Of a stretch of DNA of 64,000 nucleotides, positions 12,201 to 25,769 are shown piece by piece. The notes below the pieces were generated by a model. That model did no database searches. It was not told the origin of the DNA and was given only the letters and a program-made list of their open reading frames with translations. How positions within the stretch are numbered: the stretch's first letter is position 1; the number at the start of each line of letters is the position of its first letter. The DNA comes from an uncultured Clostridia bacterium (GTDB taxonomy: Bacteria > Bacillota > Clostridia > Oscillospirales > CAG-272): contig CANQYV010000001.1 in NCBI GenBank assembly GCA_947628165.1, positions 12,314 through 76,313 of the forward strand. The letters run 5' to 3'. A program made the position numbers and the translations under genes.

Positions 12201-12373
12201 TGTATATGAAGGCATGGGAGCGCGGCGCGGCAGAGCCCGAGGAATGGGACGTTATCAGAGATATGAACGACGACGTGAAGAGCGACTGCATGCTCGGCAT
12301 CGAATTCTACGCATTTTCGGACGCAAGCGTATACATTGACAATGTCGCAATAGACGTTATCAAAGAGAAGTGA
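9272..12373 (+). CDS. secreted right-handed parallel beta-helix protein (putative polysaccharide-active enzyme) with a fused N-terminal wall-anchor-like module
   Basis: RBS AAAGGAG, then a signal peptide and a CARDB/DUF11-like Ig module. PPKTED, a TM helix and an RRKNK tail occupy residues 115-148. A second hydrophobic segment follows. Beta-helix repeats (NNKIxN, ISNNEIENISGNG, IANNTISYSPYTGI) and a C-terminal lectin/ConA-like region complete the protein. Confidence 0.7.
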   Translation: MKRLEKITVVLLAVMMAVSLANLVFAETETHDGVKITLSSDKKEYQEGETITAELTVTNTNEFDLTDVSLKHLVPDGYKLAENSSASKELDVLGAGQSVSLTVKYAAEKAAETTPPKTEDRGHIIFWVILFAAACAGMAVLIFRRKNKGTPLLLLILCLGIVGTMTVGISAASENTNETKSVEISSPIKVSGKDTAIKATVGYKLSDEKADEGDVLELSDYYVDVTGSDKNPGTKDAPFRTLEKARDTVRKYNGNMANDIVIHIGSGVFELEDTFELTDKDSGSNGHRVIYEGQGKDKTVISGGTEVTGWTLYDADKNIYCAKVEDGLNFRQLYIDGTKAVRARSGKTGQYDKRILDAERIKDGKVLPELLLGDSADAKAQADDGTIFISKNDGTFSSEWGNLNDVELHIFSAWTVNILRVKSAELDGSRYSIKVADEEAELIFNRQHPNIDGYSHMSTRNFVYYVENAYELIDEENEWYLDRETNTAYLKAPVGVDPNKKQITVPKLETVINVNGTLDKPVENVTFRNLSVQYSSWLKPSEEGFVDGQSMQYITRTVFAKNDAGVGRPSAGILVTGAKKVEFDNNKIANMGATGIDFFWGTDHCVISNNEIENISGNGVSVGKFAENSEVDYHVPYNPADKREICTGDMIVNNKITNVGTDYESAVAVAAGYPKNILIANNTISYSPYTGITVGFGWTKSPNAMSGNRIIRNEIHHVTTMLCDAGGIYTLSEQPGSKMLQNYIHDIVLPKWADYGTFGIYLDEGTGGYAVNENILENAYTINQHATGENLVYGNYLNPSGTVVSDRADEIKKLAGVQEKIDIEELLALTEASEQQGNETERLTEDNFDGYGAGAFASDKWTVGDGQDSLVKIVEGADGNKYVEIVSHGSNTTLYSTYSFGANVTTFDFMFPKNLTQYEGIYNVIRKSSITYTSNITPAYWTSVRLETKGDSETGISKEIKSETWYTCKTMVNGRTMYMKAWERGAAEPEEWDVIRDMNDDVKSDCMLGIEFYAFSDASVYIDNVAIDVIKEK

Positions 12374-12400
12374 CCCGCGCGTCACAGGTCAAGTGAAAAA

Positions 12401-12436
12401 AGTGCCGCAGGCAGACGCCTGCGGCACTTGATTTTT
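12401..12436. terminator. bidirectional intrinsic terminator between convergent genes
   Basis: 12-bp perfect stem (agtgccgcaggc / gcctgcggcact) with loop agac. An A-run lies upstream and tgattttt downstream. Confidence 0.75.
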
Positions 12437-12447
12437 ATGTATGTATT

Positions 12448-13065
12448 TCATCTTATGAAATTCGTTCTTTCGACGGGGACTTTTTCGGGGAGGCCGAATT
12501 TTTCTTTTCCGAGGGCGATGCTCTTCATCAGGAAAGCCATGTTGCCGGCGAGAATGCGCATTGTGGAAAGGCCCTCCGCGTCGCGCGCCGCCTCTCTGGG
12601 GGCGGCTCCGTGGATGCTGTTCCAATACATGCTTGACGCCACCGGCATCCCCGATATGGTAAAATACTTGTTCAGCTCGTCAAATGTCGCCGACAGACCT
12701 CCGCGGCGCGCGGCAACGACGCTTGCGCCGACCTTCATCGTTTTGTCGAAATGCGTGCTGTAAAACAGCCTGTCGAGAATGGCGACGAGCGTTGCGTTTG
12801 CGGAAGCGTAATAGACCGGGCTCGCGATGACGAGGCCGTCGCTCTCTTCAAAAACAGGCGCAAGCTCGTTCACGGCGTCGTCAAAGGCGCATCTCCCCGT
12901 CTTTGCGCATGTGCCGCAGGCGATGCAGCCTCTTATCGGCGATGTGCCGACGCAGAATGTCTCTACTTCTATGCCTTCGCGGTCGAATACCTTTTTCATC
13001 TCCTCGAGCGCCAGAGCGGTGTTCCCGTTTTTGCGCGGGCTGCCGTTTATCATAAGTACTTTCAT
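12448..13065 (-). CDS. iron-sulfur flavoprotein / flavodoxin-like FMN reductase family protein
   Basis: MKVLMINGSPRKNGNT flavodoxin-like start and a compact Cys cluster GCIACGTCAKTGRC (CX2CX2CX5C) as in Isf-type proteins. Confidence 0.8.
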   Translation of the reverse strand: MKVLMINGSPRKNGNTALALEEMKKVFDREGIEVETFCVGTSPIRGCIACGTCAKTGRCAFDDAVNELAPVFEESDGLVIASPVYYASANATLVAILDRLFYSTHFDKTMKVGASVVAARRGGLSATFDELNKYFTISGMPVASSMYWNSIHGAAPREAARDAEGLSTMRILAGNMAFLMKSIALGKEKFGLPEKVPVERTNFIR

Positions 13066-13409
13066 CGTTTCTCTCCCGTCTGTTCGTTATTTTGTTTGTA
13101 TTTTTCGCCCCAAGCCTTCATTGCGTCTAAAATCGGTTTGAGGCTCTCTCCCAGCTCCGACAGCGCATATTCCACTCTCGGCGGGACTTCGGGGTAAACG
13201 GTACGGGTGATGATTCCATCCGCTTCCATAGAGCGCAGGCTTTCCGTAAGCACCTTCTGACTTATGCCGGAAAGGCTTCTCCGCAGCTCGCCGAACCGCC
13301 GCGGACGGTCGAGCAGGTCGCGGATAATCAAAAGCTTCCACTTGCTGCCGATAAGATTGACCGTCGCCGCCACCGGGCACTCCGGCAAAAGCTCGTCTTT
13401 TGTTTTCAT
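13062..13409 (-). CDS. HxlR/DUF24-family winged-helix transcriptional regulator
   Basis: CPVAATVNLIGSKWKLLIIRDL ... RRFGELRR ... ISQKVLTESLRSMEADGIITR. ATG 13409 follows an AGGGGG RBS. There is a 4-nt overlap with the flavoprotein gene. Confidence 0.85.
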   Translation of the reverse strand: MKTKDELLPECPVAATVNLIGSKWKLLIIRDLLDRPRRFGELRRSLSGISQKVLTESLRSMEADGIITRTVYPEVPPRVEYALSELGESLKPILDAMKAWGEKYKQNNEQTGEKR

Positions 13410-13561
13410 GCTGCCCCCTAATATCGACAAAGAATTATCCCGCCCATATTGTACCGCAAAAGCGCCGGAAAATCAAGAAGCTGTGCGGACGCATTGACAG
13501 CAAGATAAAAGGATTATTTCTCGGTCACAAAACCGTGACCCGATAACAAAAATGTGCGTAC

Positions 13562-13590
13562 TTGCGCTTTGAATGCGATAACGGTATAAT
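13562..13590 (+). promoter_or_regulatory. candidate promoter of the macro/SirTM genes
   Basis: TTGCGC, 17 nt, TATAAT (13585-13590). It is followed by a perfect 12-nt tandem duplication at 13595-13618. Confidence 0.4.
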
Positions 13591-13661
13591 CAATATATGG
13601 CGCGGCATATGGCGCGGCGACACGAACGGCGCGTAAAGAAATTTCAAAAAGGGCGGGAAAA

Positions 13662-14423
13662 ATGACGCATAGGGAACGCAGGGTATATCTTATAAAGGCG
13701 CTGCTTGGGGAGGACAGGAGATATGACGGGATGTCCGTGCCGTCGGGCGACGAGGCACAGAAAAGACTTCTCCGCTCGCTTATGAACGTGCGCCCGCCGA
13801 TGCCTGTCGGCGAGGATTTTCTCGCGGTGCAGGACGCGTATCTGCGGGAGGAAATTGCACGAAAGGGCGTCACCGACATATCGGAGCTTCGGCCAGTTGA
13901 GGACGGCATATACCTTTGGCAGGGCGACATAACGACGCTTTCGTGCGGCGCTGTTGTGAACGCCGCAAACTCAGGCATGACGGGGTGCTACGCGCCGTGC
14001 CACGGCTGCATAGACAACGCTATCCACACATACGCCGGCGTTCAGCTCAGGCTCGCGTGCGCGGAAATAATGGAAAGGCAGGGGCATGGAGAGCCTGTCG
14101 GATGTGCGAAGGTGACGCCCGCATATAATCTGCCGTGCGGCAGCGTTATCCACACGGTCGGCCCCGCCGTTCACGGATATGTGACCGAGGAGGCACGGGA
14201 GCAGCTTGCGTCCTGCTACCGCTCGTGTCTGCGCGCGGCGGAGGAGCACGGGATACAAAGCGTCGCTTTTTGCTGTATTTCAACGGGGGAGTTTTGCTTC
14301 CCGAATGAGGAGGCGGCGGAGATCGCGGTCCGCACGGTCAGAGAATACAAAGGGAAAACGGAGGTAATATTCAATGTTTGGAAGGACGTCGACCTTGAAA
14401 TATACAGGCGGCTGCTCGGATGA
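13662..14423 (+). CDS. macrodomain protein (protein-ADP-ribose hydrolase type associated with SirTM)
   Basis: A ~90-aa N-terminal extension, then macro motifs VVNAANSGMTGC, GCIDNAIHTYAG and CISTGEFCFP. Confidence 0.85.
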   Translation: MTHRERRVYLIKALLGEDRRYDGMSVPSGDEAQKRLLRSLMNVRPPMPVGEDFLAVQDAYLREEIARKGVTDISELRPVEDGIYLWQGDITTLSCGAVVNAANSGMTGCYAPCHGCIDNAIHTYAGVQLRLACAEIMERQGHGEPVGCAKVTPAYNLPCGSVIHTVGPAVHGYVTEEAREQLASCYRSCLRAAEEHGIQSVAFCCISTGEFCFPNEEAAEIAVRTVREYKGKTEVIFNVWKDVDLEIYRRLLG

Positions 14424-15267
14424 GATAGAGACGCTCGGGGACGCGCTTGACAAAGCGGACGCCGTCGTCATCGGCGCGGGAGCCGGGCTTTCGACCTCTG
14501 CGGGCTTTGTGTACGACGGCGAGAGGTTCCGAAAATATTTCTCCGATTTTGCCTCAAAATACGGCTTTTCGGATATGTATTCCGGGGGCTTTTATCCTTA
14601 CGAAACAGAGGAGGAATTCTGGGCATACTGGAGCCGGTATATTTTCATCAACCGCTACATAGACGCGCCGAAGCCCGTATACGAAAACCTGCTTTCGCTC
14701 GTCGGCAAAAAGGACTACTTTGTCATCACGACAAATGTCGACCACTGCTTTCAGAAGGCGGGATTTGACAAAGCTCGCCTTTTTTACACACAGGGGGATT
14801 ACGGGCTGTTCCAATGCTCAAAGCCGTGCCGACAAGAAACATTCGACAACGAAGATATCATACGCGAAATGGCTGCGCGCCAGCGCGATATGAAAATTCC
14901 GACGGAGCTTTTGCCGAGGTGCCCGCATTGCGGAAGCCCTATGACGGTGAATCTGCGCTCGGACGGCAGCTTTGTCGAGGACGAGGGCTGGCACAAAGCC
15001 TCTGCCCGGTACACGGATTTTATAAGATCAAGGAAAGGAGGACGCGTTCTTTTCCTTGAGCTTGGCGTCGGCTACAACACCCCGGGCATAATAAAATACC
15101 CGTTTTGGAGCATGACGAACGAAAACCCGAACGCGGTATACGCGTGCTTGAACTTCGGGCAGGCTTTCTGTCCCGACGAGATAAGGACTAGATCGATATG
15201 CATAAACGGCGATATCGGAGAGGTGCTTTGCAGGCTGAAAAATAAGGAAAACGGGATCGCGCGATGA
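14374..15267 (+). CDS. class-M sirtuin (SirTM-like SIR2-family protein, putative protein ADP-ribosyltransferase)
   Basis: GAGAGLSTSAG NAD-binding loop and TTNVDH. YTQGDYG replaces the canonical sirtuin HG. Zn ribbon CSKPC ... CPHCGSP. GGAGG RBS 9 nt before ATG 14374. No in-frame ATG/GTG/TTG lies between 14423 and the GAGAG motif, so overlap with the macro gene is forced. Confidence 0.85.
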   Translation: MFGRTSTLKYTGGCSDEIETLGDALDKADAVVIGAGAGLSTSAGFVYDGERFRKYFSDFASKYGFSDMYSGGFYPYETEEEFWAYWSRYIFINRYIDAPKPVYENLLSLVGKKDYFVITTNVDHCFQKAGFDKARLFYTQGDYGLFQCSKPCRQETFDNEDIIREMAARQRDMKIPTELLPRCPHCGSPMTVNLRSDGSFVEDEGWHKASARYTDFIRSRKGGRVLFLELGVGYNTPGIIKYPFWSMTNENPNAVYACLNFGQAFCPDEIRTRSICINGDIGEVLCRLKNKENGIAR

Positions 15268-15381
15268 AGGCGCGGTCCTCTTTTATTTTCTGCTGTAAAA
15301 CAAGGGACTTTATTTTTCGGAAAAACCATGATATACTAAGGCATAATGAATTGACAAATGCCACGTTGCCGGGAGGGAGCC

Positions 15382-16053
15382 ATGTATCGGCTGCTCATAG
15401 TTGAAGACGACAGGAGCATTGCGGGCGCAATAACGGAACAGGCCGAAAGGTGGGACCTCGAATGCCGCGCGGTCAAGGATTTCAGAGCCGTGCTCGACGA
15501 ATTTGTGGATTTCGGACCTCATCTCGTCCTGCTCGACATCGGTCTGCCCGTCTATAACGGATACCATTGGTGCTGCGAGATAAGAAAAATATCGAAAGTG
15601 CCGATAATTTTCATCTCGTCCGCCTCCGACAATATGAATATCGTCATGGCGATGAACATGGGCGCGGACGATTTCATCTCGAAGCCGTTTGACGGGGCGG
15701 TGCTCATCGCGAAAATACAGGCGCTTCTGCGCCGCGTGTACGATTACGTCCCGGATTCGCGCCTGCTCTCGCACAGAGGCGCCGTCCTCAACACTGGCGA
15801 CGACACGCTTCAATATAACGGGGAGGTCATCTCCCTGACAAAAAACGAATACCGCATACTGCTCTGCCTTTTGGAGAACAAGGGAAAGGTCGTCAGCCGC
15901 GAGCGGCTGATGGAGAGGCTTTGGAAGACGCAGCAGTTCATAGACGAAAACACGCTTACGGTCAACATAAACCGCCTTCGCAAAAAGCTCGAGCAGTCGG
16001 GACTCACCGATTTTATTACGACGAAGGTCGGCCTCGGCTATATAGTCGAGTAA
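15382..16053 (+). CDS. OmpR-family response regulator (BceR-like)
   Basis: MYRLLIVEDD, LLDIGLPVYNGYHWC, and a C-terminal wHTH ending in KVGLGYIV. Confidence 0.9.
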   Translation: MYRLLIVEDDRSIAGAITEQAERWDLECRAVKDFRAVLDEFVDFGPHLVLLDIGLPVYNGYHWCCEIRKISKVPIIFISSASDNMNIVMAMNMGADDFISKPFDGAVLIAKIQALLRRVYDYVPDSRLLSHRGAVLNTGDDTLQYNGEVISLTKNEYRILLCLLENKGKVVSRERLMERLWKTQQFIDENTLTVNINRLRKKLEQSGLTDFITTKVGLGYIVE

Positions 16054-16078
16054 GCCAAAAATATAAGGGGAGGCAAAA

Positions 16079-16522
16079 ATGGTCGATATAGTCACGATGA
16101 CGGCGGAGCACAGAGAGTGTGTTCTTTCTATGATGCGGATGTTTTACAGCTCGCCGGCGCTTCTGACCGACGGCTCGGAGGAGATATACATGCGCGATGT
16201 TGAGGCGTGTCTCGGCGGCGACCCGTGCGTCGAAGGATACGTTTTCGTCGATAACGGTGCGCCCGTCGGGTATGCCATGACGGCGCAAAGCTTTTCGACT
16301 GAGTACGGCAGGCGGTGCGTATGGATAGAGGATATCTACCTTATGCCCGAATACCGCGGGCGCGGACTTGCCGCTCGGTTTTTCTCTCTCATAGAAGAGA
16401 AGCACCGCGGCGCGATATTTCGCCTTGAGGTGCAAAAGGACAATGCGCCGGCGATATCGGCGTACAGAAAAAACGGCTTTGACGAGATGACATACATGGA
16501 AATGAAGAAGATAGTGAAATGA
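16079..16522 (+). CDS. GNAT-family N-acetyltransferase
   Basis: AGGGGAGG RBS. Acetyl-CoA binding segment YRGRGLAARFF and NAPAISAYRKNGF. The stop overlaps the kinase start (ATGA). Confidence 0.85.
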   Translation: MVDIVTMTAEHRECVLSMMRMFYSSPALLTDGSEEIYMRDVEACLGGDPCVEGYVFVDNGAPVGYAMTAQSFSTEYGRRCVWIEDIYLMPEYRGRGLAARFFSLIEEKHRGAIFRLEVQKDNAPAISAYRKNGFDEMTYMEMKKIVK

Positions 16523-17508
16523 AACTGTTTTGGGCTTATATAAAGGAAAGGAAGAACGTAATACTCGCGGCGCTCGTTTTTTCCGCCGTGTTCGCCGCCG
16601 CGTTTCTGATGTATCATCTGCCGACGGCGGCGCTCCTCTATCCCGCGCTTTTATGCGCGCTCTTTGCCGCCGTTTTCACGGCTTTTGATTTTGTCCGCGT
16701 GAATCAAAAGCACGATGTCTTGACGCTTGTAAAGACGATGACCGCCGAGACGATGGACTCGCTCCCCGAGAAAAAGACTGTAGACGACTGTGATTATCAG
16801 GATATCATCGAGTCGTTAAAGCGCGAGGTGCTCGAGGAGAGGGAAGTGGCACAGCGCCGTTATCGCGATATGATGGAGTACTACACCGTATGGGTGCATC
16901 AGATAAAGACCCCCATCACCTCGATGAGGCTGACGCTCGAAAAGGAGGACTCGGCGACGTCGAGAAAGCTGTCGGTCGACCTGTCCGGGATAGAGCAGTA
17001 TGTTTCGATGGTGCTCGCTTTTTTGAGGCTTGACGGCGAGTCGGGGGATTACGTCTTCGGCAGATACGAGCTCGATGGGATAATAGAGCAGGCGATAACG
17101 AAATTCGCGTCCGAGTTTATAGACAGGCGGCTGAGGCTCGAATATACACCGACAAACAAGACTGTCGTCACGGATGAAAAATGGCTCCTTTTCGTGCTCG
17201 AGCAGCTCCTTTCAAACGCGCTGAAATATACGCGCGAGGGCGGGATCAAAATATATATGCAAGGGCAGGACGACCTCGTTATCGAGGACACGGGCATCGG
17301 AATATCGAAAAACGACCTCCCGCGCGTTTTCGAGATGGGATATACGGGCAAAAACGGACGGCTCGATATGCGCTCGAGCGGCATCGGGCTCTATCTCTGC
17401 CGCCGCATCTGTCAAAAGCTCGGCGTGGGGCTCGACATAACCTCCGAGCCGGGGCGTGGGACGACCATCACCCTCGGCCTTGAGCAGTACGAACTGAAAA
17501 AAGAGTGA
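16519..17508 (+). CDS. intramembrane-sensing histidine kinase (BceS-like)
   Basis: Two N-terminal TM helices with essentially no external loop. H-box WVHQIKTPI and a HATPase region (EDTGIGI ... GIGLYL). Confidence 0.85.
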   Translation: MKLFWAYIKERKNVILAALVFSAVFAAAFLMYHLPTAALLYPALLCALFAAVFTAFDFVRVNQKHDVLTLVKTMTAETMDSLPEKKTVDDCDYQDIIESLKREVLEEREVAQRRYRDMMEYYTVWVHQIKTPITSMRLTLEKEDSATSRKLSVDLSGIEQYVSMVLAFLRLDGESGDYVFGRYELDGIIEQAITKFASEFIDRRLRLEYTPTNKTVVTDEKWLLFVLEQLLSNALKYTREGGIKIYMQGQDDLVIEDTGIGISKNDLPRVFEMGYTGKNGRLDMRSSGIGLYLCRRICQKLGVGLDITSEPGRGTTITLGLEQYELKKE

Positions 17509-17540
17509 CCTTACAAAAATGAAAGATTTGATACGGGAAA

Positions 17541-17585
17541 TGTAAGCCGATAAAATGGCGGCGCGTTTCCCGTTCCTGCTATAAT
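17541..17585 (+). promoter_or_regulatory. candidate activator-dependent promoter of the Bce-like transporter genes
   Basis: TATAAT at 17580-17585 with no recognisable -35. TGTAAG at 17541-17546 has an inverted partner CTTACA at 17510-17515. Assigning it as a response-regulator box is inference. Confidence 0.3.
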
Positions 17586-17619
17586 AGGGGCACAGTCTTT
17601 TTTAGGAAAGGTATTTTTG

Positions 17620-18384
17620 ATGAGTATTTTAGAGGTAAGGGGAGTAGAGAAGATCTATTCCACACGCATAGGAGGCAGCAAGGTCCGGGCGCTGAGGAAC
17701 GTATGCTTCGCGGTCGAGCCGGGCGAATACGTCGCGATAATGGGAGAGTCCGGCTCGGGCAAAACGACGCTGCTCAATATCATTGCCGCGCTCGACAAGC
17801 CGACGAACGGGACGGTCACGCTCGACGGCATGGATATCGGAGGAATAAAGGAATCGGAGATCGCGGCGTTCAGACGCGACAATCTCGGCTTTGTCTTTCA
17901 GGAGTTCAATCTTCTTGACACATTTACGATCGAAGATAATATTTATCTTCCTCTCGTGCTCGCGAAAAAGAGCTACGCCGTGATGAGGGATCGCCTCATG
18001 CCGATAGCGGACAGGCTCGGCATATCGGGCATACTCAAAAAATATCCGTATGAGGTCTCAGGAGGGCAGAAGCAGAGGGCGGCTGTCGCCCGCGCCATGA
18101 TAACGGAACCGAGGCTCATCCTCGCGGACGAGCCGACCGGCGCGCTCGATTCCCGTGCGAGCGACGAGCTTTTGAGGCTTTTCGCTGACGTAAACGAGGC
18201 GGGGCAGACAGTCCTCATGGTCACGCATTCCGTAAAGGCGGCGAGCGTTTCGAGGCGCGTCCTCTTCATCAAGGACGGGGAGGTGTTCCATCAGCTCTAC
18301 CGCGGCGATGACACGAGCGAGCAGTTCTATCAGAAGATAAGCGACACGCTGACGCTGCTTGCGACCGGAGGTCAGATAAAATGA
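17620..18384 (+). CDS. ABC transporter ATP-binding protein (BceA/MacB-type)
   Basis: Walker A GESGSGKTT, signature VSGGQKQR, Walker B LILADEPTGALD. Confidence 0.9.
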   Translation: MSILEVRGVEKIYSTRIGGSKVRALRNVCFAVEPGEYVAIMGESGSGKTTLLNIIAALDKPTNGTVTLDGMDIGGIKESEIAAFRRDNLGFVFQEFNLLDTFTIEDNIYLPLVLAKKSYAVMRDRLMPIADRLGISGILKKYPYEVSGGQKQRAAVARAMITEPRLILADEPTGALDSRASDELLRLFADVNEAGQTVLMVTHSVKAASVSRRVLFIKDGEVFHQLYRGDDTSEQFYQKISDTLTLLATGGQIK

Positions 18385-20429
18385 AAACATTCTTTTATCC
18401 GAGGCTCGCGGCAAGCGGCATGATAAAAAACAAGCGGATGTATCTGCCTTTTATCCTGACCTGCACCGGGATGGTGATGATGTTTTACATCATCATATAT
18501 CTTGCGGTCAGCAGCGTCCTCGACAACCTTATCGGAGCCGAGTCGCTGCGGCAGATGTTTGCGCTCGGAAGCTGGGTCATCGCGGTCTTTGCCGCTATTT
18601 TCCTGTTTTACACAAACTCATTTCTCATAAAGCGTAGAAAGAAGGAATTCGGTCTTTATAACATTCTCGGCATGGGAAAGCGGAATATTGCCCGCATCCT
18701 CTTTTGGGAAACGGTCATTACAGCCGTCGTTTCCGTCATCGCGGGCCTTGCCGCGGGGATAGCATTTTCAAAATTCGCTGAGCTCGGCATGGTGAATATC
18801 ATGCACGGCGAGGTGAGCTACGATCTCTCCGTCTCGTTTGTCGCCGTTTTGCGCTCTGTTGAGGTCTTCGGCGTCATCTTTCTTTTGCTTTTGTGCAATT
18901 CAATACGGCAGGTGCGGTTTTCAAGCGCCGTATCGCTTCTCAGAAGCGAAAACGCGGGCGAGAAGCCGCCGAAGGGGAATTGGTTGTTCGGCATTTGCGG
19001 GGCGCTGCTCCTTTTGGGCGCGTATTATATCTCCGCAACGATAGAAAACCCGCTCGCCGCCCTTATGGTTTTCTTTGTGGCGGTTTTGATGGTCATCGTC
19101 GGAACTTATCTTTTTATGATCTCGGGCTCTGTCATTTTCTGCCGCCTTCTGCAAAAGGACAAGGGCTATTACTACAAGCCGAATCACTTCGTTTCCGTGT
19201 CGTCTATGGTATACCGCATGAAGCGGAACGGCGCGGGGCTTGCGTCGATTTGTATCCTTGCGACAATGGTGCTCGTCATGATGGCGTCTACGACGTGCCT
19301 TTATTTCGGCGAGGAGGACGCGGTGCTTACGCGATATCCGCGCGATATTAACCTTGAGTTCCAGTTTGACGATCTGTCCGATTTCTTGGATGAGCATACC
19401 GAAATACTCAAAAACGGGGTGTATGAAGAGCTCAAGGCGAAGAATGTGCTTCTAAGAAACGATTACCGCTACCGCGTCGCCACATTTTACGGCGTTGTCG
19501 ATGGGAATACGGTGGATGTGGACCCGACCGGGATAAGCGACACAGACTTCATGAATTCCGCATATGTTTTCAGATTTATCCCCCTTGCGGATTATAACGA
19601 ACTCATGGGAGCCGACGAGACGCTTGCCGACGGGGAGGCGCTGCTCTATTCACACAGGACGAACTACAACGCCGACGCGGTCAGTTTCAAAAACGGGGAA
19701 ACATTCAGGATAAAAAAGAAGCTCGACACGCTGACAGGCGGCAGCGAAACGGCAATGGACATGATATCCACCATTACGCTTGTCGTTCCGGAGCTCGAGA
19801 GCAGTCTGCGCCGGCTCGACGGTATCGCGAATTTCAACGGAGACAGTCTGCTTCAGAAGAAATGGATCTGCAGTTTTGATACGGGCATGGATCCGGAAGA
19901 ACAGATAGCGCTGTATCAGGATCTTACGGAGACGCTGAGACGGGATCCTTCATCAAGCGTGAAGCTCGGATATAAAAGCGTTTATATCAGCAGCCAGGAA
20001 TTTGAAAAGAATGATTTCTACGGGCTGTTCGGCGCGCTGTTTTATCTCGGCATAATCCTGAGCCTCGCCTTCACCGTTGCCGCCGTGCTCATCATATATT
20101 ACAAGCAGATATCCGAGGGGTACGAGGATCAGGCGCGGTTCCTCATCATGCAGAAGGTGGGCATGACGAAGCCCGAGATCAGGGCGAGCATAAATTCTCA
20201 GCTTTTGACCGTGTTTTTCCTGCCGCTTTTGCTCGCCGTGCTTCACGTCACGTTTGCGTTTCCCATTATCCGCAAGATACTGTTGATGTTCAATCTCAAC
20301 AACGCAAGGCTTTTCGCGTCGACGACGCTTCTGACCGTCGCCGTGTTCGCGCTGTTCTATACCGCCGTATACCGCCTCACGTCAAACGCTTACTATAAAA
20401 TAGTGAGCGGGCTCGGCGGCGAGAGATGA
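18381..20429 (+). CDS. FtsX-family ABC permease (BceB-like, ~10 TM with a large extracellular domain)
   Basis: The 682-aa architecture has TM clusters at both ends and a ~220-aa soluble domain in the middle. ATGA overlap with the ATPase gene. Confidence 0.85.
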   Translation: MKTFFYPRLAASGMIKNKRMYLPFILTCTGMVMMFYIIIYLAVSSVLDNLIGAESLRQMFALGSWVIAVFAAIFLFYTNSFLIKRRKKEFGLYNILGMGKRNIARILFWETVITAVVSVIAGLAAGIAFSKFAELGMVNIMHGEVSYDLSVSFVAVLRSVEVFGVIFLLLLCNSIRQVRFSSAVSLLRSENAGEKPPKGNWLFGICGALLLLGAYYISATIENPLAALMVFFVAVLMVIVGTYLFMISGSVIFCRLLQKDKGYYYKPNHFVSVSSMVYRMKRNGAGLASICILATMVLVMMASTTCLYFGEEDAVLTRYPRDINLEFQFDDLSDFLDEHTEILKNGVYEELKAKNVLLRNDYRYRVATFYGVVDGNTVDVDPTGISDTDFMNSAYVFRFIPLADYNELMGADETLADGEALLYSHRTNYNADAVSFKNGETFRIKKKLDTLTGGSETAMDMISTITLVVPELESSLRRLDGIANFNGDSLLQKKWICSFDTGMDPEEQIALYQDLTETLRRDPSSSVKLGYKSVYISSQEFEKNDFYGLFGALFYLGIILSLAFTVAAVLIIYYKQISEGYEDQARFLIMQKVGMTKPEIRASINSQLLTVFFLPLLLAVLHVTFAFPIIRKILLMFNLNNARLFASTTLLTVAVFALFYTAVYRLTSNAYYKIVSGLGGER

Positions 20430-20433
20430 CAAA

Positions 20434-20625
20434 ATGGAGAGTTGGGACGAAAAAAACCGCGTGAAAAAGAGAGCGGGCATACGCCCGCTCGCGCGGGGCT
20501 GCGTGTTCTTTACGGGGATGGCAGTCATCGCAACCCTCGCGGTACCGGCGGTTCTGCTGTTCGGGATGATATATGCCATATCAAAGCTGACGGACGCGCT
20601 GACCGACAAGATAGACAAGAGCTGA
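20434..20625 (+). CDS. possible small membrane protein (63 aa)
   Basis: A single hydrophobic stretch (VFFTGMAVIATLAVPAVLLFGMIYAI). It starts 5 nt after the permease stop and has a weak RBS. Confidence 0.3.
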   Translation: MESWDEKNRVKKRAGIRPLARGCVFFTGMAVIATLAVPAVLLFGMIYAISKLTDALTDKIDKS

Positions 20626-20649
20626 GAAAAAAAGGAGGGCAGAGCTGGC

Positions 20650-21537
20650 ATGGGACGAAAAAAGCGCGCCGGAAAAGGCAGGGCGGACAGAGGGGCGAAA
20701 GCCGTGCTCGCTGCCGTTTTGCTCATATACATGGGGCTTATAATTTTTACCGTATGGGGAAATACGGCGCTGATGCTCCACGAGATAGAGATCGAAAGCT
20801 CCCGCCTGCCCGAGGCGTTCTCAGGATTTCGGATAGCGCACATCTCCGATCTGCACAATGCGGAGTTCGGCGACGGGAACGAAAAGCTGCTCGATTTGCT
20901 CGGGCGGGCGGAGCCCGACATTATAGTCATCACCGGCGACCTTGTCGACAGAAGGCATGCGGACACCGAAAATGCGCTCCGCTTTGTCGAAAAGGCGGCG
21001 GCGCTGGCGCCGACGTACTACGTTTCGGGGAATCACGAGGCCGCGCGCGGGGATTATGATGAGCTCAGGGAAAAAATTGAGGACGCGGGAGCATTCGTGC
21101 TTGACGACGGGCGCACGGTTATCGAGCGGGACGGCGAGGAGATACTTTTGCTCGGGCTCATGGACCCGGACTTTGCCGTAAAGGGCGACTTTTTCGGCGA
21201 GGCATCCGCGATGGTGAAGGCGAAGCTCGGCGAGCTTATGAACGGGGAAGACAAATACACGGTGCTCCTCTCGCACAGGCCGGAGCTCTTCCTTTCGTAT
21301 GTTTCGTGCGGCGTCGACCTTGCATTTTGCGGTCACGCGCACGGCGGGCAGTTCCGCTTTCCGTTCGTCGGCGGACTTTACGCGCCCGGTCAGGGCTTTT
21401 TCCCGGAATATGACTCGGGGCTGTATACCGATGGGAGCACGTCGATGGCGGTGAGCCGAGGCCTCGGCAACAGTGTTATCCCGTTCCGCTTCAACAACAG
21501 GCCCGAGATAATTCTTGCCGTGCTCTCTCGTAAATAA
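20650..21537 (+). CDS. membrane-anchored metallophosphoesterase (YkuE-like)
   Basis: AAGGAGGG RBS. Motifs ISDLHN, GDLVD, GNHE and GHAHGGQ. N-terminal TM helix. Confidence 0.85.
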   Translation: MGRKKRAGKGRADRGAKAVLAAVLLIYMGLIIFTVWGNTALMLHEIEIESSRLPEAFSGFRIAHISDLHNAEFGDGNEKLLDLLGRAEPDIIVITGDLVDRRHADTENALRFVEKAAALAPTYYVSGNHEAARGDYDELREKIEDAGAFVLDDGRTVIERDGEEILLLGLMDPDFAVKGDFFGEASAMVKAKLGELMNGEDKYTVLLSHRPELFLSYVSCGVDLAFCGHAHGGQFRFPFVGGLYAPGQGFFPEYDSGLYTDGSTSMAVSRGLGNSVIPFRFNNRPEIILAVLSRK

Positions 21538-21540
21538 AAA

Positions 21541-21566
21541 GCGTCCCCCCGGGGGCGCTTTTTTAT
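21541..21566 (+). terminator. intrinsic terminator
   Basis: GC-rich stem gcgtccc/ggggcgc followed by tttttt. Confidence 0.7.
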
Positions 21567-21649
21567 GTAAAAAATACGAGTGAGACTTGATTATGAAATC
21601 CGTATCGGCTATAATGAAAATAAAGGATATGCATACGTTCGGAGGCGCT

Positions 21650-23659
21650 TTTTCGATGAGGAGCATTTCGATAACGGATGAGCTTTTGTTTGGCGGCGTG
21701 TCCGTCACTCGGCGCGGCGAGAACGGCTGCGAGCTTTTGTTTTCAAAAGACGGAGGCGGGCTCGTTTTGCCCGGGATCGCAGAATGCGCGGAGCGGTATC
21801 TGACGTTTCGCGTCTCCGTCATGGAGGAGCACAGCATACCGATGCACTTCCTCGTCTATGTGAAGGGCGAAGAAAAGCCTGCGTTCACCGTCAGATTCGG
21901 GCTCCTGCCGCGCGTTGAGGCGACCGTGTGCATCGACCTTTCCTGGATGGACGGGAGCAGGCTTTTCCCTGAGGCGATGCCTGGAACGCTGAAGATAGTG
22001 TGCCACGGGCGGCGTGTATACAGGGACGAGATAGTCCGCGTGACGCTCTCGACCCTGCCCGCGTTTCACGACATAAGGCTGAAGCTCGCGGACATGACGC
22101 TGACGGACGAGTACCCGGACACCGCCTCGCTCCCCGATGTGAAGCTTGTCGATATGTTCGGTCAGAGCAAATGGCGGCAGTGGCGCGGCAAAACCGAGAA
22201 TGAGGCGGAGCTGTCAGCAGCGCTCCGCCGCCAATATGATGAAGCCGTGAGCGGGTGCCGCATTCCCGACCGCACGGGGTACGGCGGATGGAAAAAGAAA
22301 AAACTCACGGACGGCACGGGATTTTTCTCCCGCGTCAAAAAGGACGGCAGATGGTGGCTCACCGACCCGCTCGGATACGCGTTTTTCAGCATGGGTCCCG
22401 ACTGCGTCGGTCTCGGCGGAGACTGCCGGATAGACGGCGTTGAAAAATGGCTCGACTGGCTCCCCGACAGGGACGATAAAGAATACGGGGACATGTATCA
22501 TGAGCCGGAGAAAAGACGCGGCAGAAGAAAGATAAGATATTTTTCATTTTACAAGGCGAACCTCCGCCGCGCGTTCGGCGTTGACTGGTACGAAAAGTGG
22601 CGCCGGATGCTCGTAGGGCAGCTTTGGAGTTGCGGGATGAACACGCTCGGCAACTGGAGCGACGGCGACCTTCTCGGAGCCGTCGGTATGCCTTATGTAA
22701 CGTCCCTGCCGAGATTCCCCTCGACGGAAAAGCGCATATTCCGCGATTTCCCGGACGTTTTCAGCGAGGAATACGAAGCGGACGCAAAAAGATGTGCCGC
22801 GGCGCTCGAAAAGAGGAAGAGCGACCCGCTCATGATAGGGTATTTTCTCCGAAACGAACCCGAATGGGCGTTCGTCGACGGACTTGTTCTCGCGGACGAG
22901 GTGCTCTATTGTCCCGAGCGCACTGCCTGCAAGGAACGGCTCGTGTCACATCTCAGAGAAAAATACGGCAATATAGCGGCGCTCAACGCGGCGTGGGGAA
23001 CGGATCTTCCCGATTTTGACGCGCTATATGAAAGCAGGCGCGAGGTATCGAAGCTCTCGGATACATCACGACGCGATATGAAAGAGTTTTCGAGGATGAT
23101 GCTGCGCGCATACATCGAGATACCCGTCCGCGAGTGCAGAATGGTCGACAAAAACCACATGATACTCGGCATGCGCTGGGCATGGATATCGGATCCCGAC
23201 CTTGTAACGGGATGGAAATGCTTCGACGTCTTTTCTATAAACTGCTACTCCGTCGACCCTACGGCAGCGATAGACGGCGTCACGTCGCTCGGAGTCGACC
23301 TTCCCGTGCTCATCGGAGAGTTTCACTTCGGAGCGCTCGACTCTGGGCTTCCGGCAACGGGGCTTGAGGCTGTCGAAACACAGCGCGACCGCGGTGTCGC
23401 GTACAGGCATTATGTCGAATGTGCCGCCGCGCACCCGAACGGGGTCGGCTGTCACTATTTCCAGTGCTACGACCAGTTCACGCTCGGGAGATTTGACGGC
23501 GAGAATTACAACATAGGCATTTTCGATATCTGCTCGCGCGCGTACCCCGAAATGACGGAGGAGATAAGAAAGTGCTCGGAGCGAGTGTATGCCATAGCTG
23601 ACGGCTCGCTCGAAAAAAGCCGTGAGCTGCCGCATTCGATCCCGATGATAGCATACTGA
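21650..23659 (+). CDS. putative glycoside hydrolase, (beta/alpha)8 clan GH-A-like; family not assignable by eye
   Basis: FLRNEPEW (NEP acid/base-like) and IGEFHFG (nucleophile-like) motifs. Start uncertain: ATG 21650 has a GGAGG RBS, and the track ORF opens at 21587. Confidence 0.5.
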   Translation, partial: FSMRSISITDELLFGGVSVTRRGENGCELLFSKDGGGLVLPGIAECAERYLTFRVSVMEEHSIPMHFLVYVKGEEKPAFTVRFGLLPRVEATVCIDLSWMDGSRLFPEAMPGTLKIVCHGRRVYRDEIVRVTLSTLPAFHDIRLKLADMTLTDEYPDTASLPDVKLVDMFGQSKWRQWRGKTENEAELSAALRRQYDEAVSGCRIPDRTGYGGWKKKKLTDGTGFFSRVKKDGRWWLTDPLGYAFFSMGPDCVGLGGDCRIDGVEKWLDWLPDRDDKEYGDMYHEPEKRRGRRKIRYFSFYKANLRRAFGVDWYEKWRRMLVGQLWSCGMNTLGNWSDGDLLGAVGMPYVTSLPRFPSTEKRIFRDFPDVFSEEYEADAKRCAAALEKRKSDPLMIGYFLRNEPEWAFVDGLVLADEVLYCPERTACKERLVSHLREKYGNIAALNAAWGTDLPDFDALYESRREVSKLSDTSRRDMKEFSRMMLRAYIEIPVRECRMVDKNHMILGMRWAWISDPDLVTGWKCFDVFSINCYSVDPTAAIDGVTSLGVDLPVLIGEFHFGALDSGLPATGLEAVETQRDRGVAYRHYVECAAAHPNGVGCHYFQCYDQFTLGRFDGENYNIGIFDICSRAYPEMTEEIRKCSERVYAIADGSLEKSRELPHSIPMIAY

Positions 23660-23696
23660 AGCGAAATAAAAAATAAATAAACGGAGGCAACAGAAA

Positions 23697-25769
23697 ATGA
23701 GCGCAAAAAAAAGAAGACTGATTGCTGTTTTGATATGTCTTTCGATGCTTCTCGCTTTTCTTCCTTCATGCGTAAAGGACGCGGGCGGCGATGAGACGGG
23801 AGACGTCATCGGAACAGGCAGCGGCACGTCGTTAAGCACGGGCAGCGCTTCCGGCACGGAGGCGGCGGATACATCCTCATCCGCAGGCAAGGAGCCGGAG
23901 AAGAACGATGCGGACAAAACCGTCGTGATCTCGCCCCTGAACGCGTCCACGAACAACGACGGCGTTTTCGAGGGCTGGGGCACGAGCCTTTGCTGGTGGG
24001 CAAACAGGCTCGGATATTCCGATGTGCTCGCGCAGAAGGCGGCGGATCTCTTTTACGGCGACGACGGACTGCGCCTCAACATCATGCGCTACAATATCGG
24101 CGGCGGCGACGACCCGACGCACACGCACATAACGAGGACAGACTCCGCCGTGCCGGGATGGCTCGTGTTTGACGAGGCGAGCGGCGAATATGTCTACGAC
24201 TACGACGCCGACAAAAACCAGATAAACGTGATGCAGCGCGCTGTCAAGGCGGCGGGGGACAACGCGATAGTAGAGGTATTCTCAAACTCGCCCCCGTACT
24301 TTATGACGAACAGCGGCTGCTCCTCCGGAAATACGGACGCGAACGTGAACAATCTGAAAAACGATTCCTATGAGGAGTTCGCGGAATATCTCGCTCACGT
24401 CACAAACTACATACAGAATGAGCTCGGCATCCGCGTTGCAAGCGTCGCCCCGATGAATGAGCCGAACACGAATTATTGGGGCGCCGGGAGCGACAAGCAG
24501 GAGGGCTGCCATTTTGACGCGGGAACGGCGCAGTCGAAGATAATCACGCTGACTGCCAAAGCTCTCGCAAGATACGGGCTCGACAACGTCATTATTTCCG
24601 CGAGCGACGAGACGAGCACGGGAAAGCAGCTTGAGGAATACGGGCTTTATTCAAAGGATGCAAAGGCCGTTATCGGAAGGATAAACACGCATTCCTACGG
24701 CACCGACAGGATAGCGGAGCTCGGTCAGCTTGCAAAGGACGAGGGGTTCGTCCTCTGGATGAGCGAGGTCGACGGCAGCGGGACCTCCGGAACGAACGCC
24801 GGCGAGATGGGCTCGGCGCTCTGGTTCGGCGAAAAGATAATCTCAGATATGAACGGGCTTTCTCCGTCCGCGTGGGTCATGTGGCAGGCAATAGACAACC
24901 ACATTTCAAAGGACGGATACAACGGGCGCCGTGATTTCGGAATGGTAGACGTCAACGGCGGCTTTTGGGGGCTCGCCGTCTGCGACCATGACAAGGAGGA
25001 CATAATCCTAACGCAGAAGTATTACGGCATGGGGCAGTTCACGCGATACATAAGACCGGGATACACGATAATAACGTGCAGCTCGGACGCGCTCGCGGCG
25101 TATGACGAAGAGAGCGGAACGCTCGTTGTCGTTGCGCTCAATACGGGCGCGAGGAAAAAGACGGTTAGATTTGACCTCTCGCAGTTTGAGAAGACGGGAT
25201 CGTCCGTCAGCGCCGTCCGCACGAGCGGGAATACTTCAAACGGCGAAAAATGGGCAGAGATCGGCGAATTTCCCGCCGACGGCGACGGATTTACCGTTGA
25301 GCTGAAGGCAAATTCCATCACGACCTACATCATGAAGGACGTGAAGATGGGAGATGCCAGGATAGAGGAAATACCTCTCGACGGCTCGAAGGTCACGGGC
25401 TCCGTACCGTGGAACGGCGGCGCCGACGTCGCAGCACACGTTATCGACGGCAGCGTCGGCACGTTCTTCGACGGCGTCGAGAACGGCTGGCTCGAGATAG
25501 ATATGGGAAAAGAGACGTCGTTCGACGTTATCGGATACGCGCCCCGCGCCGGATATGAGGACAGGATGGTGAAAGGCACCTTCTACGGCTCAAACGACGG
25601 CGAGAACTGGACGGAGCTTTACCGTGTGACGGAGGTCCCCGCCGCCGGGATAAACTTCGCGTTCATGGACGATGCCGTGAGCTTCCGCTATATCCGCTAC
25701 GACGTCCCGACGGGTACGGGAGACCTCTGCAATATTGCGGAGATAAAGCTCTACACAACCGGAAAATGA
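23697..25769 (+). CDS. GH30-family glycoside hydrolase lipoprotein with a C-terminal discoidin (F5/8 type C, CBM32-like) domain
   Basis: Signal peptide with LPSC lipobox. FEGWGTSLCWWANRLG and MNEPNTNYWG motifs typical of GH30. C-terminal IRYIRYDVP ... IAEIKLY discoidin-like end. Confidence 0.8.
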   Translation: MSAKKRRLIAVLICLSMLLAFLPSCVKDAGGDETGDVIGTGSGTSLSTGSASGTEAADTSSSAGKEPEKNDADKTVVISPLNASTNNDGVFEGWGTSLCWWANRLGYSDVLAQKAADLFYGDDGLRLNIMRYNIGGGDDPTHTHITRTDSAVPGWLVFDEASGEYVYDYDADKNQINVMQRAVKAAGDNAIVEVFSNSPPYFMTNSGCSSGNTDANVNNLKNDSYEEFAEYLAHVTNYIQNELGIRVASVAPMNEPNTNYWGAGSDKQEGCHFDAGTAQSKIITLTAKALARYGLDNVIISASDETSTGKQLEEYGLYSKDAKAVIGRINTHSYGTDRIAELGQLAKDEGFVLWMSEVDGSGTSGTNAGEMGSALWFGEKIISDMNGLSPSAWVMWQAIDNHISKDGYNGRRDFGMVDVNGGFWGLAVCDHDKEDIILTQKYYGMGQFTRYIRPGYTIITCSSDALAAYDEESGTLVVVALNTGARKKTVRFDLSQFEKTGSSVSAVRTSGNTSNGEKWAEIGEFPADGDGFTVELKANSITTYIMKDVKMGDARIEEIPLDGSKVTGSVPWNGGADVAAHVIDGSVGTFFDGVENGWLEIDMGKETSFDVIGYAPRAGYEDRMVKGTFYGSNDGENWTELYRVTEVPAAGINFAFMDDAVSFRYIRYDVPTGTGDLCNIAEIKLYTTGK

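Follow-up and report, generated by a model that had tools for sequence, protein, structure and literature searches.

What does a SirTM/Zn-Macro pair modify, and what controls it, when its two genes stand without a gene for GcvH-L, the only SirTM target so far known (PMC11490716)? This question is raised by a 64-kb stretch (64,000 nt) from an uncultured gut Clostridia bacterium, referred to below as the window, to which all statements on genome-level absence are limited. In the window, the gene for a zinc-dependent macrodomain protein (Zn-Macro) is followed and overlapped by the gene for a class-M sirtuin (SirTM). Judged from their sequences, the two genes are a Zn-Macro and SirTM pair, ordinary within a class that is very common and already published. 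We consider it likely that the genes form a functional two-gene operon, repressed by a divergently encoded HxlR regulator and induced by stress, whose coupled products would carry out reversible mono-ADP-ribosylation of a target other than GcvH-L.

The Zn-Macro and SirTM genes and the absence of GcvH-L and LplA2

The product of the first gene matched the NCBIfam model NF003163 ('protein-ADP-ribose hydrolase') over residues 2-252 with 333.8 bits, relative to a curated equivalog cutoff of 272, and matched the S. aureus Zn-Macro structure 5kiv over residues 3-252 (E 1.2e-74). The structural match covered the N-terminal three-helix bundle, in agreement with an initial annotation of the window that had taken this gene for a macrodomain of the long-N-terminus type. 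When aligned to 5kiv, the zinc loop consists of C109, H114 and C116 and the Dx3H motif runs from D118 to H122; the window segment GCYAPCHGCIDNAIH aligned with GCMQANHDCIDNIIH of the S. aureus protein (SauMacro), with a Cys/His/Cys loop instead of the glycine-rich catalytic loop. Both the zinc loop and the Dx3H motif have been described for Zn-Macros (Ariza 2024, PMC11490716).

The product of the second gene matched the S. pyogenes SirTM structure 5a3a (E 1.6e-75), and every hallmark that had been listed for it was present: the IGAGAGLS loop, TTNVDH (with N121), YTQGDYG (with Q140 replacing the catalytic His, i.e., QG for HG) and the zinc ligands C148-x3-C152 and C183-x2-C186 (CxxxC...CxxC), together with R195. 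Q140 aligned with Gln137 of 5a3a, and N121 and R195 are equivalent to Asn118 and Arg192 of SpySirTM, residues whose roles have been described along with that of Gln137 (Rack 2015, PMC4518038). The catalytic and zinc residues and the GAGAGLS loop were invariant in 10 homologues. The linkage to a Zn-Macro that characterizes class M was also found, with the macrodomain gene directly upstream and overlapping by 50 nt. In comparison with the nearest relative (locus L004), the ratio of nonsynonymous to synonymous substitution (dN/dS) was 0.10 for Zn-Macro and 0.18 for SirTM, pairwise values that describe both lineages and are not assignable to the window lineage alone; because of these low ratios, both enzymes are judged to be under purifying selection.

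The window encodes neither GcvH-L nor LplA2, as had been claimed initially. phmmer searches with E. coli GcvH and LplA against six-frame open reading frames (ORFs) of at least 50 amino acids gave zero matches at E<=1, and GCV_H, Biotin_lipoyl and BPL_LplA_LipB were absent from Pfam scans of 20 size-matched window ORFs. Related loci seeded on SirTM (L001-L083, flanks up to 10 kb) were likewise free of phmmer matches at E<=1; metagenome loci L086-L165, seeded on the ACGX radical SAM gene discussed below, were left outside this screen.

Absence from the window may simply mean that a standard system has been split, with a GcvH-L/LplA2 pair elsewhere in the genome as the real substrate. Only 64 kb of the genome is visible, and the standing of GcvH-L as the sole known target speaks for this explanation. 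The related loci that were screened, however, hold no GcvH or LplA homologue within their flanks, and the window Zn-Macro lacks the residues for contact with GcvH-L. The SauMacro segment QIRRL, whose Arg175 and Arg176 constitute a positively charged GcvH-L contact surface (Ariza 2024, PMC11490716), aligned with AVHGY in the window protein, in which the Arg-Arg pair is missing. In addition, Zn-Macros from lone pairs cannot demodify GcvH-L in vitro (Ariza 2024, PMC11490716). A split standard system is in our judgement very unlikely.

A pair lacking both partners is not a novelty, as such pairs are already published; 'lone SirTM/Zn-Macro pairs' have been named and their targets stated to be unknown (Ariza 2024, PMC11490716). 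Lone pairs, including those of Clostridia, appear in Rack 2015 (PMC4518038) as well as in Ariza 2024 (PMC11490716), with Enterococcus faecalis and Treponema pedis as examples and with Clostridiaceae and Lachnospiraceae in the listed range (PMC4518038, PMC11490716). The family is abundant, with at least 8000 homologous proteins at E<=1e-10 and, among the matches listed, at least 586 across species-representative genomes. The window pair alone changes little, being one more of a published, very abundant class.

The gene overlap and the toxin/antidote question

The initial annotation had given the two genes an overlap of at least 29 nt, or of 50 nt from ATG 14374 with its GGAGG Shine-Dalgarno sequence, and had found no in-frame start past the Zn-Macro stop. 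The window sequence agrees on each point. SirTM is read in the +1 frame relative to Zn-Macro from one of two candidate starts, ATG 14374 (50-nt overlap) or TTG 14395 (29-nt overlap), and no in-frame ATG, GTG or TTG lies between the Zn-Macro stop and the GAGAG loop. We take ATG 14374 to be the real start because the N-terminus that it provides (MFGRT...K.T...SD) is conserved in homologues of ~74% identity. The SirTM ATG and the Shine-Dalgarno sequence are both built from conserved Zn-Macro codons, EVIFNV (gaGGTGatattcAATG), and the overlap stretch showed zero substitutions relative to L004.

Whether close relatives keep the overlap had been named as a check, and they do. Among 80 species-representative genome loci, 64 have a macrodomain gene adjoining SirTM, and the homologous ATG with an overlap of 47-86 nt is kept in 59 of these, always in the same relative frame; the overlap measures 50 nt in 28 loci and 56 nt in 18. 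The overlap is thus an ancestral, family-wide trait, and in its plain reading it fits translational coupling. Partially overlapping genes in SirTM/Zn-Macro operons have been noted before (Ariza 2024, PMC11490716).

Two candidates for a macro-SirTM fusion were rejected. A programmed +1 frameshift, which would give a fusion like fungal Mfs1, does not agree with the variable position of the Zn-Macro stop (overlaps of 47-86 nt), with the absence of a slippery motif at GGA-UGA, or with the conservation of the ATG, the Shine-Dalgarno sequence and the MF.R N-terminus. A 510-amino-acid protein of one related locus (P0003, at 10001-11533 of L003) proved to combine a truncated copy of SirTM with a full-length one. 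Its neighbours are TnpV, a type I restriction-modification system, MerR and helix-turn-helix genes, surroundings that suggest that SirTM cassettes travel on mobile elements.

From the overlap, the initial annotation had gone on to a stoichiometric coupling like that of toxin/antidote pairs, in which SirTM would be a toxic ADP-ribosyltransferase and the overlapping Zn-Macro its obligatory antidote, as in DarT/DarG. Translational coupling is implied by the overlap and this part stands; addiction is not implied by overlap alone. An eraser that is translated first, a 50-nt overlap that relatives conserve and a writer/eraser logic similar to that of DarTG would all suit a toxin and its antidote. 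However, SirTM genes of ~70-77% identity have no adjoining Zn-Macro in 12 genome loci (counted only where at least 800 nt of upstream sequence was available), and an adjoining macrodomain gene is also missing from 10 of 30 SirTM-containing metagenome loci, so that obligate co-occurrence does not hold. In the 12 genome loci, the macro-less SirTM is preceded by nitroreductase, Fer4-nitroreductase, PNPOx or alcohol dehydrogenase genes. In nine loci (L015, L025, L027, L028, L045, L056, L060, L069 and L070), a macro-less SirTM stands directly 3' of a nitroreductase, Fer4-nitroreductase, PNPOx or Zn-alcohol-dehydrogenase gene, and these loci contradict the view that SirTM is always linked to a macrodomain. 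PADLOC models of anti-phage defence and toxin-antitoxin systems matched neither protein at E<=0.01, and the pair is located at the 3' end of stress/redox operons under a dedicated sensor. Characterised SirTMs, moreover, are highly target-specific and have been made recombinantly (Rack 2015, PMC4518038). The survey of relatives removes the toxin/antidote idea, which we now hold to be extremely improbable.

Several of the nine macro-less loci retain a '..FS-M' junction resembling a remnant of the 3' end of a macrodomain gene. In two metagenome loci with ACGX-type operons (L133 and L152), the order of the pair is reversed, with SirTM before Zn-Macro.

The divergent HxlR unit and a conserved operator

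The unit divergent from the pair had been described as an HxlR/DUF24 regulator with an Isf-like flavoprotein, and Pfam matches agree with both assignments (Table 1). The flavoprotein, an FMN reductase, carries the Isf-type cysteine motif CxxCxxCx5C (CIACGTCAKTGRC). The 4-nt overlap of its start with the HxlR stop makes co-transcription of the two genes likely, and the same arrangement of HxlR and FMN_red occurs in L004 and in metagenome locus L093. On the basis of homology with L004 and an AGGGGG ribosome-binding site, the HxlR start was moved from TTG 13430 to ATG 13409, which corrects the length of the intergenic region from the 230 nt first reported to 252 nt. The regulator is 88% identical to the HxlR of L004 and has a single cysteine, C11 (in a P-x-C-P motif), which is invariant in 87 of 87 orthologues. 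Thiol-based DUF24/HxlR sensors, YodB and HypR among them, are marked by one such N-terminal cysteine.

A functional link between HxlR and the pair, first offered as inference only, now has comparative genomics behind it. Of the 43 genome loci with an upstream flank of 5.5 kb or more, 23 have a divergent HxlR orthologue (E 1e-40 to 1e-65) within 5.5 kb upstream, and among 54 metagenome loci seeded on the radical SAM gene, 49 contain an HxlR orthologue. The intergenic region also contains a conserved 12-mer, AAGTGCGTACTT, which occurs, with up to 2 mismatches allowed, in 30 of the 32 intergenic regions of HxlR operons relative to a background of 0.023 per 300 nt, and whose copy between HxlR and Zn-Macro is the sole match in the 64-kb window. 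The inverted repeat GGTCAC-N6-GTGACC that had been pointed out in this region is present and corresponds to the upstream box of the same operator. In related loci its counterpart, GTTAC-N5/6-GGTRAC, begins at a constant distance of 29 nt ahead of the start of the main box (box 2); 9 of the 32 loci match strictly, and most show the consensus. The linkage of HxlR to macro-SirTM is, on these comparisons, strongly supported.

Within the window, the inverted repeat has 2 matches at <=1 mismatch, where 0.06 are expected. The second is a near-copy, GTTCACGGATATGTGACC (1 mismatch), at 14169-14186 inside the Zn-Macro ORF, ~190 nt 5' of the SirTM start, and could be an internal regulatory site or a chance match.

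The main box covers part of the -35 position of the candidate macro-SirTM promoter, as a repressor site would, and we infer that HxlR represses this divergent promoter. A GTATAAT-like hexamer is conserved across loci ~21-24 nt 3' of the main box. Directly 3' of the window's -10 hexamer, at 13595-13618, there is a perfect 12-nt tandem duplication (ATATGGCGCGGC twice), at the place where the window departs from ACGX-type relatives; it may have been left in the 5' untranslated region by a recombination or deletion. An Rfam scan of 12300-15450 for a riboswitch or leader gave only two sub-threshold chance matches.

The mechanism that we favour begins with the one-cysteine HxlR repressor, which would bind the bipartite operator over the macro-SirTM -35 region and would be released when Cys11 is oxidized or alkylated under oxidative, electrophile or thiol stress. 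Its release would induce macro-SirTM on one side and HxlR with the Isf-like FMN reductase on the other. The bicistronic macro-SirTM mRNA would end at the predicted terminator, and translation of SirTM from ATG 14374, via the Shine-Dalgarno sequence in the last Zn-Macro codons, would couple synthesis of the writer to that of the eraser. As expected from their families, SirTM would use NAD+ (through N121, Q140 and R195) to ADP-ribosylate a specific target other than GcvH-L, and the Zn-Macro would remove the ADP-ribose mark. The physiological frame may be thiol, electrophile or oxidative stress, which fits because of the flavoenzyme neighbours here and in relatives and because oxidative stress induces the canonical systems, which have links to OYE and LLM flavoenzymes (PMC4518038, PMC11490716). 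The genes adjoining the window pair encode HxlR, FMN_red, a response regulator and a GNAT acetyltransferase; the scan for OYE and LLM domains (PF00724 and PF00296) covered some but not all window ORFs.

Some observations weigh against this mechanism. HxlR is missing from 20 of the 43 related loci, so that HxlR control would be lineage- or cassette-specific and not universal. The proposed macro-SirTM promoter has a weak -35 hexamer (TTGCGC) and was missed by a consensus scan, and the view of the genome is restricted to 64 kb. With these points considered, the HxlR-repressed, coupled operon remains the reading that we prefer.

Table 1. Features of the window around the Zn-Macro/SirTM pair, and the genes added in the nearest relative, L004.
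Feature	Position	Strand	Remarks
Terminator-like bidirectional hairpin, predicted to close the HxlR-FMN_red unit (-) and an upstream 1033-amino-acid gene (+)	12400..12429	.	13-bp stem, 9 GC pairs, T-runs on both strands
NADPH-dependent FMN reductase, Isf-like iron-sulfur flavoprotein	12448..13065	-	205 amino acids; PF03358 FMN_red E 1.1e-26
HxlR/DUF24-family regulator, predicted thiol-based redox/electrophile sensor and repressor	13062..13409	-	115 amino acids; PF01638 E 8.7e-35
Candidate sigma-70 promoter of the HxlR-FMN_red unit	13448..13476	-	TTGATT-17-TACAAT; 9/12 consensus matches; pattern match only
Putative upstream operator box, GGTCAC-N6-GTGACC	13523..13540	.	Inverted repeat of the initial annotation; counterpart of GTTAC-N5/6-GGTRAC
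Putative main conserved operator box (box 2), ATGTGCGTACTT	13552..13563	.	Consensus AAGTGCGTACTT; overlaps -35 position of macro-SirTM promoter
Candidate -10 hexamer of macro-SirTM promoter, TATAAT	13585..13590	+	21 nt downstream of box 2
Zn-dependent macrodomain (Zn-Macro), protein-ADP-ribose hydrolase, predicted eraser	13662..14423	+	253 amino acids; NF003163 and 5kiv matches
GGAGG Shine-Dalgarno sequence for SirTM	14360..14364	+	Inside Zn-Macro codons T-E-V; GAGGTG-N7/8-ATG conserved in related loci
Dual-coding overlap: Zn-Macro C-terminus and SirTM residues 1-16	14374..14423	+	50 nt; SirTM codon 17 straddles the Zn-Macro stop
Class-M sirtuin (SirTM), predicted NAD+-dependent protein mono-ADP-ribosyltransferase, writer	14374..15267	+	297 amino acids; 5a3a match
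Intrinsic-terminator-like hairpin and T-run, predicted end of the two-gene operon	15253..15289	+	10-bp stem, 7 GC pairs, tail CTTTTATTTT; overlaps SirTM stop codon
ACGX-repeat peptide	in L004		TIGR04341, 87.7 bits (cutoff 28)
Radical SAM/SPASM maturase rSAM_ACGX	in L004		TIGR04340, 576.5 bits (cutoff 400)
Nitroreductase	in L004, between HxlR and Zn-Macro
PNPOx-2x[4Fe-4S] protein (PNPOx-ferredoxin)	in L004, between HxlR and Zn-Macro

ACGX-type operons in related loci and comparison with known systems

The nearest relative, L004, comes from a rabbit-gut metagenome-assembled genome (GCA_947631245.1, uncultured Clostridia bacterium); it shares 94% identity in SirTM and 90% in Zn-Macro with the window, with which it is colinear at 94% DNA identity from window position 13737 to 25266 (11.5 kb). 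Between HxlR and Zn-Macro, L004 has four extra genes in one operon with the pair (Table 1). The window has the HxlR and the operator of such an HxlR-controlled, ACGX-type operon and lacks the ACGX peptide and rSAM_ACGX: tblastn searches of the 64 kb with the L004 proteins returned only noise (E>=0.65).

Synonymous divergence (dS) between the window and L004 is uneven. It is 0.19-0.24 for Zn-Macro codons 26-237 and SirTM and 0.14-0.25 for flanking genes, in contrast to 0.91 for HxlR and 1.46 for Zn-Macro codons 1-25. This places a recombination breakpoint at about window position 13737 (Zn-Macro codon ~26), to the right of which the window is 94% identical to L004 (dS ~0.2) and to the left of which dS is 0.9-1.5. 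The window is therefore a recombinant in which an HxlR and promoter segment was joined directly to Zn-Macro without the ACGX module; by these divergence values, the locus is a recombinant, reduced form of the larger HxlR-controlled operon of its relatives.

A full or partial ACGX module recurs in many of the 80 genome loci. ACGX-type operons of gut Clostridia (L004 800-3457; also L011, L022, L030, L040, L058, L066, L086, L122, L130, L145 and others) have a divergent HxlR and the order ACGX peptide, rSAM_ACGX, nitroreductase, PNPOx-2x[4Fe-4S], Zn-Macro and SirTM. The peptide has a leader, MALSNLxGW, followed by [P]AACGxACGAxDKPEEK repeats, and rSAM_ACGX is a distant relative of SbtM, the thio(seleno)oxazole maturase (149 bits, below cutoff). 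In the reverse direction, SirTM was found downstream in 30 of the 42 metagenome loci that were seeded on the radical SAM gene and have at least 3.5 kb of downstream sequence, a sample skewed to close relatives, as the seed gene came from a SirTM-linked locus. Gene maps of relatives were anchored by homology, as greedy longest-ORF calls had given antisense shadow ORFs (clusters c7 and c12). No paper tying ACGX systems, radical SAM or HxlR to SirTM was found in the literature searched. ACGX-linked and lone SirTMs could not be separated by identity to the window, the two contexts being interspersed at 70-77% identity.

These operons offer a candidate target, in that the window pair may act in trans on the cysteine-rich ACGX-repeat peptide, or its rSAM-modified form, encoded elsewhere in the genome. 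L004, so close in SirTM sequence, has the peptide, maturase, nitroreductase, PNPOx-ferredoxin and pair in one operon, and the recurrence of the module and the SirTM genes downstream of rSAM_ACGX point the same way. The layout, with a small carrier-like protein in first place, a modifying enzyme next and the writer and eraser after them, parallels that of GcvH-L/LplA2, and the lead fits because Zn-Macros are uniquely able to cleave Cys-ADP-ribose. By analogy, ADP-ribose on Cys, or on Asp/Lys, of each ACGxxDK repeat might possibly gate a thiol- or metal-scavenging peptide. However, peptide and maturase are absent from the window; many pairs, including those of the 20 loci without HxlR, have no HxlR or ACGX nearby; the reverse test is skewed as described; and co-operonic genes need not be enzyme and substrate, as SirTM could regulate a flavoenzyme instead. 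We hold the ACGX peptide to be a rather unlikely target because it is not encoded in the window.

A broader proposal, likewise by analogy, is put forward as one joint claim and only tentatively. It holds that a second, as yet undescribed type of extended SirTM operon exists in gut Clostridia (HxlR and, divergently, ACGX peptide, rSAM, nitroreductase, PNPOx-ferredoxin, an optional Zn-Macro and SirTM), in which the ACGX peptide would play the role of lipoyl-GcvH-L as SirTM/Zn-Macro target, possibly through Cys-ADP-ribosylation, and that the window pair would be a reduced derivative acting in trans on the ACGX peptide or another thiol-stress protein. If this doubtful proposal is true, the peptide would be the first candidate substrate for lone SirTM/Zn-Macro pairs. 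Independent of it, the related loci provide two leads on what lone pairs modify and what controls them, the question left by Ariza 2024: a thiol-sensor regulator with its operator, and a co-operonic ACGX peptide with its rSAM. The conserved regulator, operator and ACGX linkage make an acknowledged open question experimentally approachable.

A redox theme runs through the neighbours of the pair in relatives, which are nitroreductases, Fer4-nitroreductases, PNPOx-ferredoxins, a flavin reductase, and also MarR and MatE. Four loci (L039, L043, L046 and L053) share a DUF1848 protein (PF08902, E 7e-101 in L039); its gene lies between HxlR and Zn-Macro, in the place of the ACGX module, in the first three, and HxlR was not detected in L053. 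Bins that bear the labels Bacteroidaceae, Alloprevotella, Sphaerochaetaceae, Flexilinea, Bacteroides and Bifidobacteriaceae (L023, L037, L048, L054, L060 and L073) contain SirTM/macro pairs with ~70% identity to those of Clostridia; these pairs reflect either horizontal transfer or mis-binned contigs. Directly 3' of the window pair, at 15358-20429, genes for a response regulator, a GNAT acetyltransferase, a histidine kinase, an ABC ATPase and an FtsX permease (Pfam assignments from the 94%-identical locus L001) look like a bacitracin- or peptide-sensing-type module unrelated to the pair.

The system most similar to the window pair is the published lone SirTM/Zn-Macro pair. Both are operons of Zn-Macro followed by SirTM, with partial overlap and without GcvH-L or LplA; both keep all catalytic and zinc-binding residues, and in both the target is unassigned. 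In contrast to published lone pairs, the window pair has links with a divergent one-Cys HxlR, with an Isf-like FMN reductase and with a conserved operator, and its nearest relative has the ACGX-peptide module. No description of an HxlR/FMN reductase/operator context for a lone pair was found in the literature searched. The ACGX peptide/rSAM system itself (TIGR04341/TIGR04340), whose function is uncharacterised, is bracketed in relatives by the same HxlR, operator and macro-SirTM, and is absent from the window.

The extended operon found in S. aureus and S. pyogenes comprises GcvH-L, Zn-Macro, SirTM as well as LplA2, together with OYE and LLM, and its enzymes are homologous to those of the window pair (E ~1e-75). 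In both, the eraser precedes the writer, the coding regions overlap, and a flavin oxidoreductase and an association with oxidative stress are found. The window differs in having neither GcvH-L nor LplA2, in a macrodomain protein without the Arg-Arg surface for GcvH-L, and in the families of its regulator and flavoenzymes, which are HxlR and FMN_red in the window and nitroreductase and PNPOx-ferredoxin in relatives. DarT/DarG also has adjoining genes for an ADP-ribosyltransferase and a macrodomain hydrolase. Its transferase, however, has the PARP-like DarT fold whereas that of the window has a sirtuin fold; the DarT target is DNA, the gene order in the window is reversed, relatives of the window carry macro-less SirTM genes, and the window pair has no PADLOC match.

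The regulator, finally, is comparable to YodB, CatR and HypR, DUF24/HxlR sensors of B. subtilis which are small winged-helix proteins with a conserved N-terminal cysteine, are divergent from detoxification/redox operons, and have inverted-repeat-type operators overlapping the promoter. The HxlR of the window differs from these sensors in the sequence of its putative operator and in the genes that it would regulate, which are the writer and eraser of ADP-ribosylation and not reductases only.

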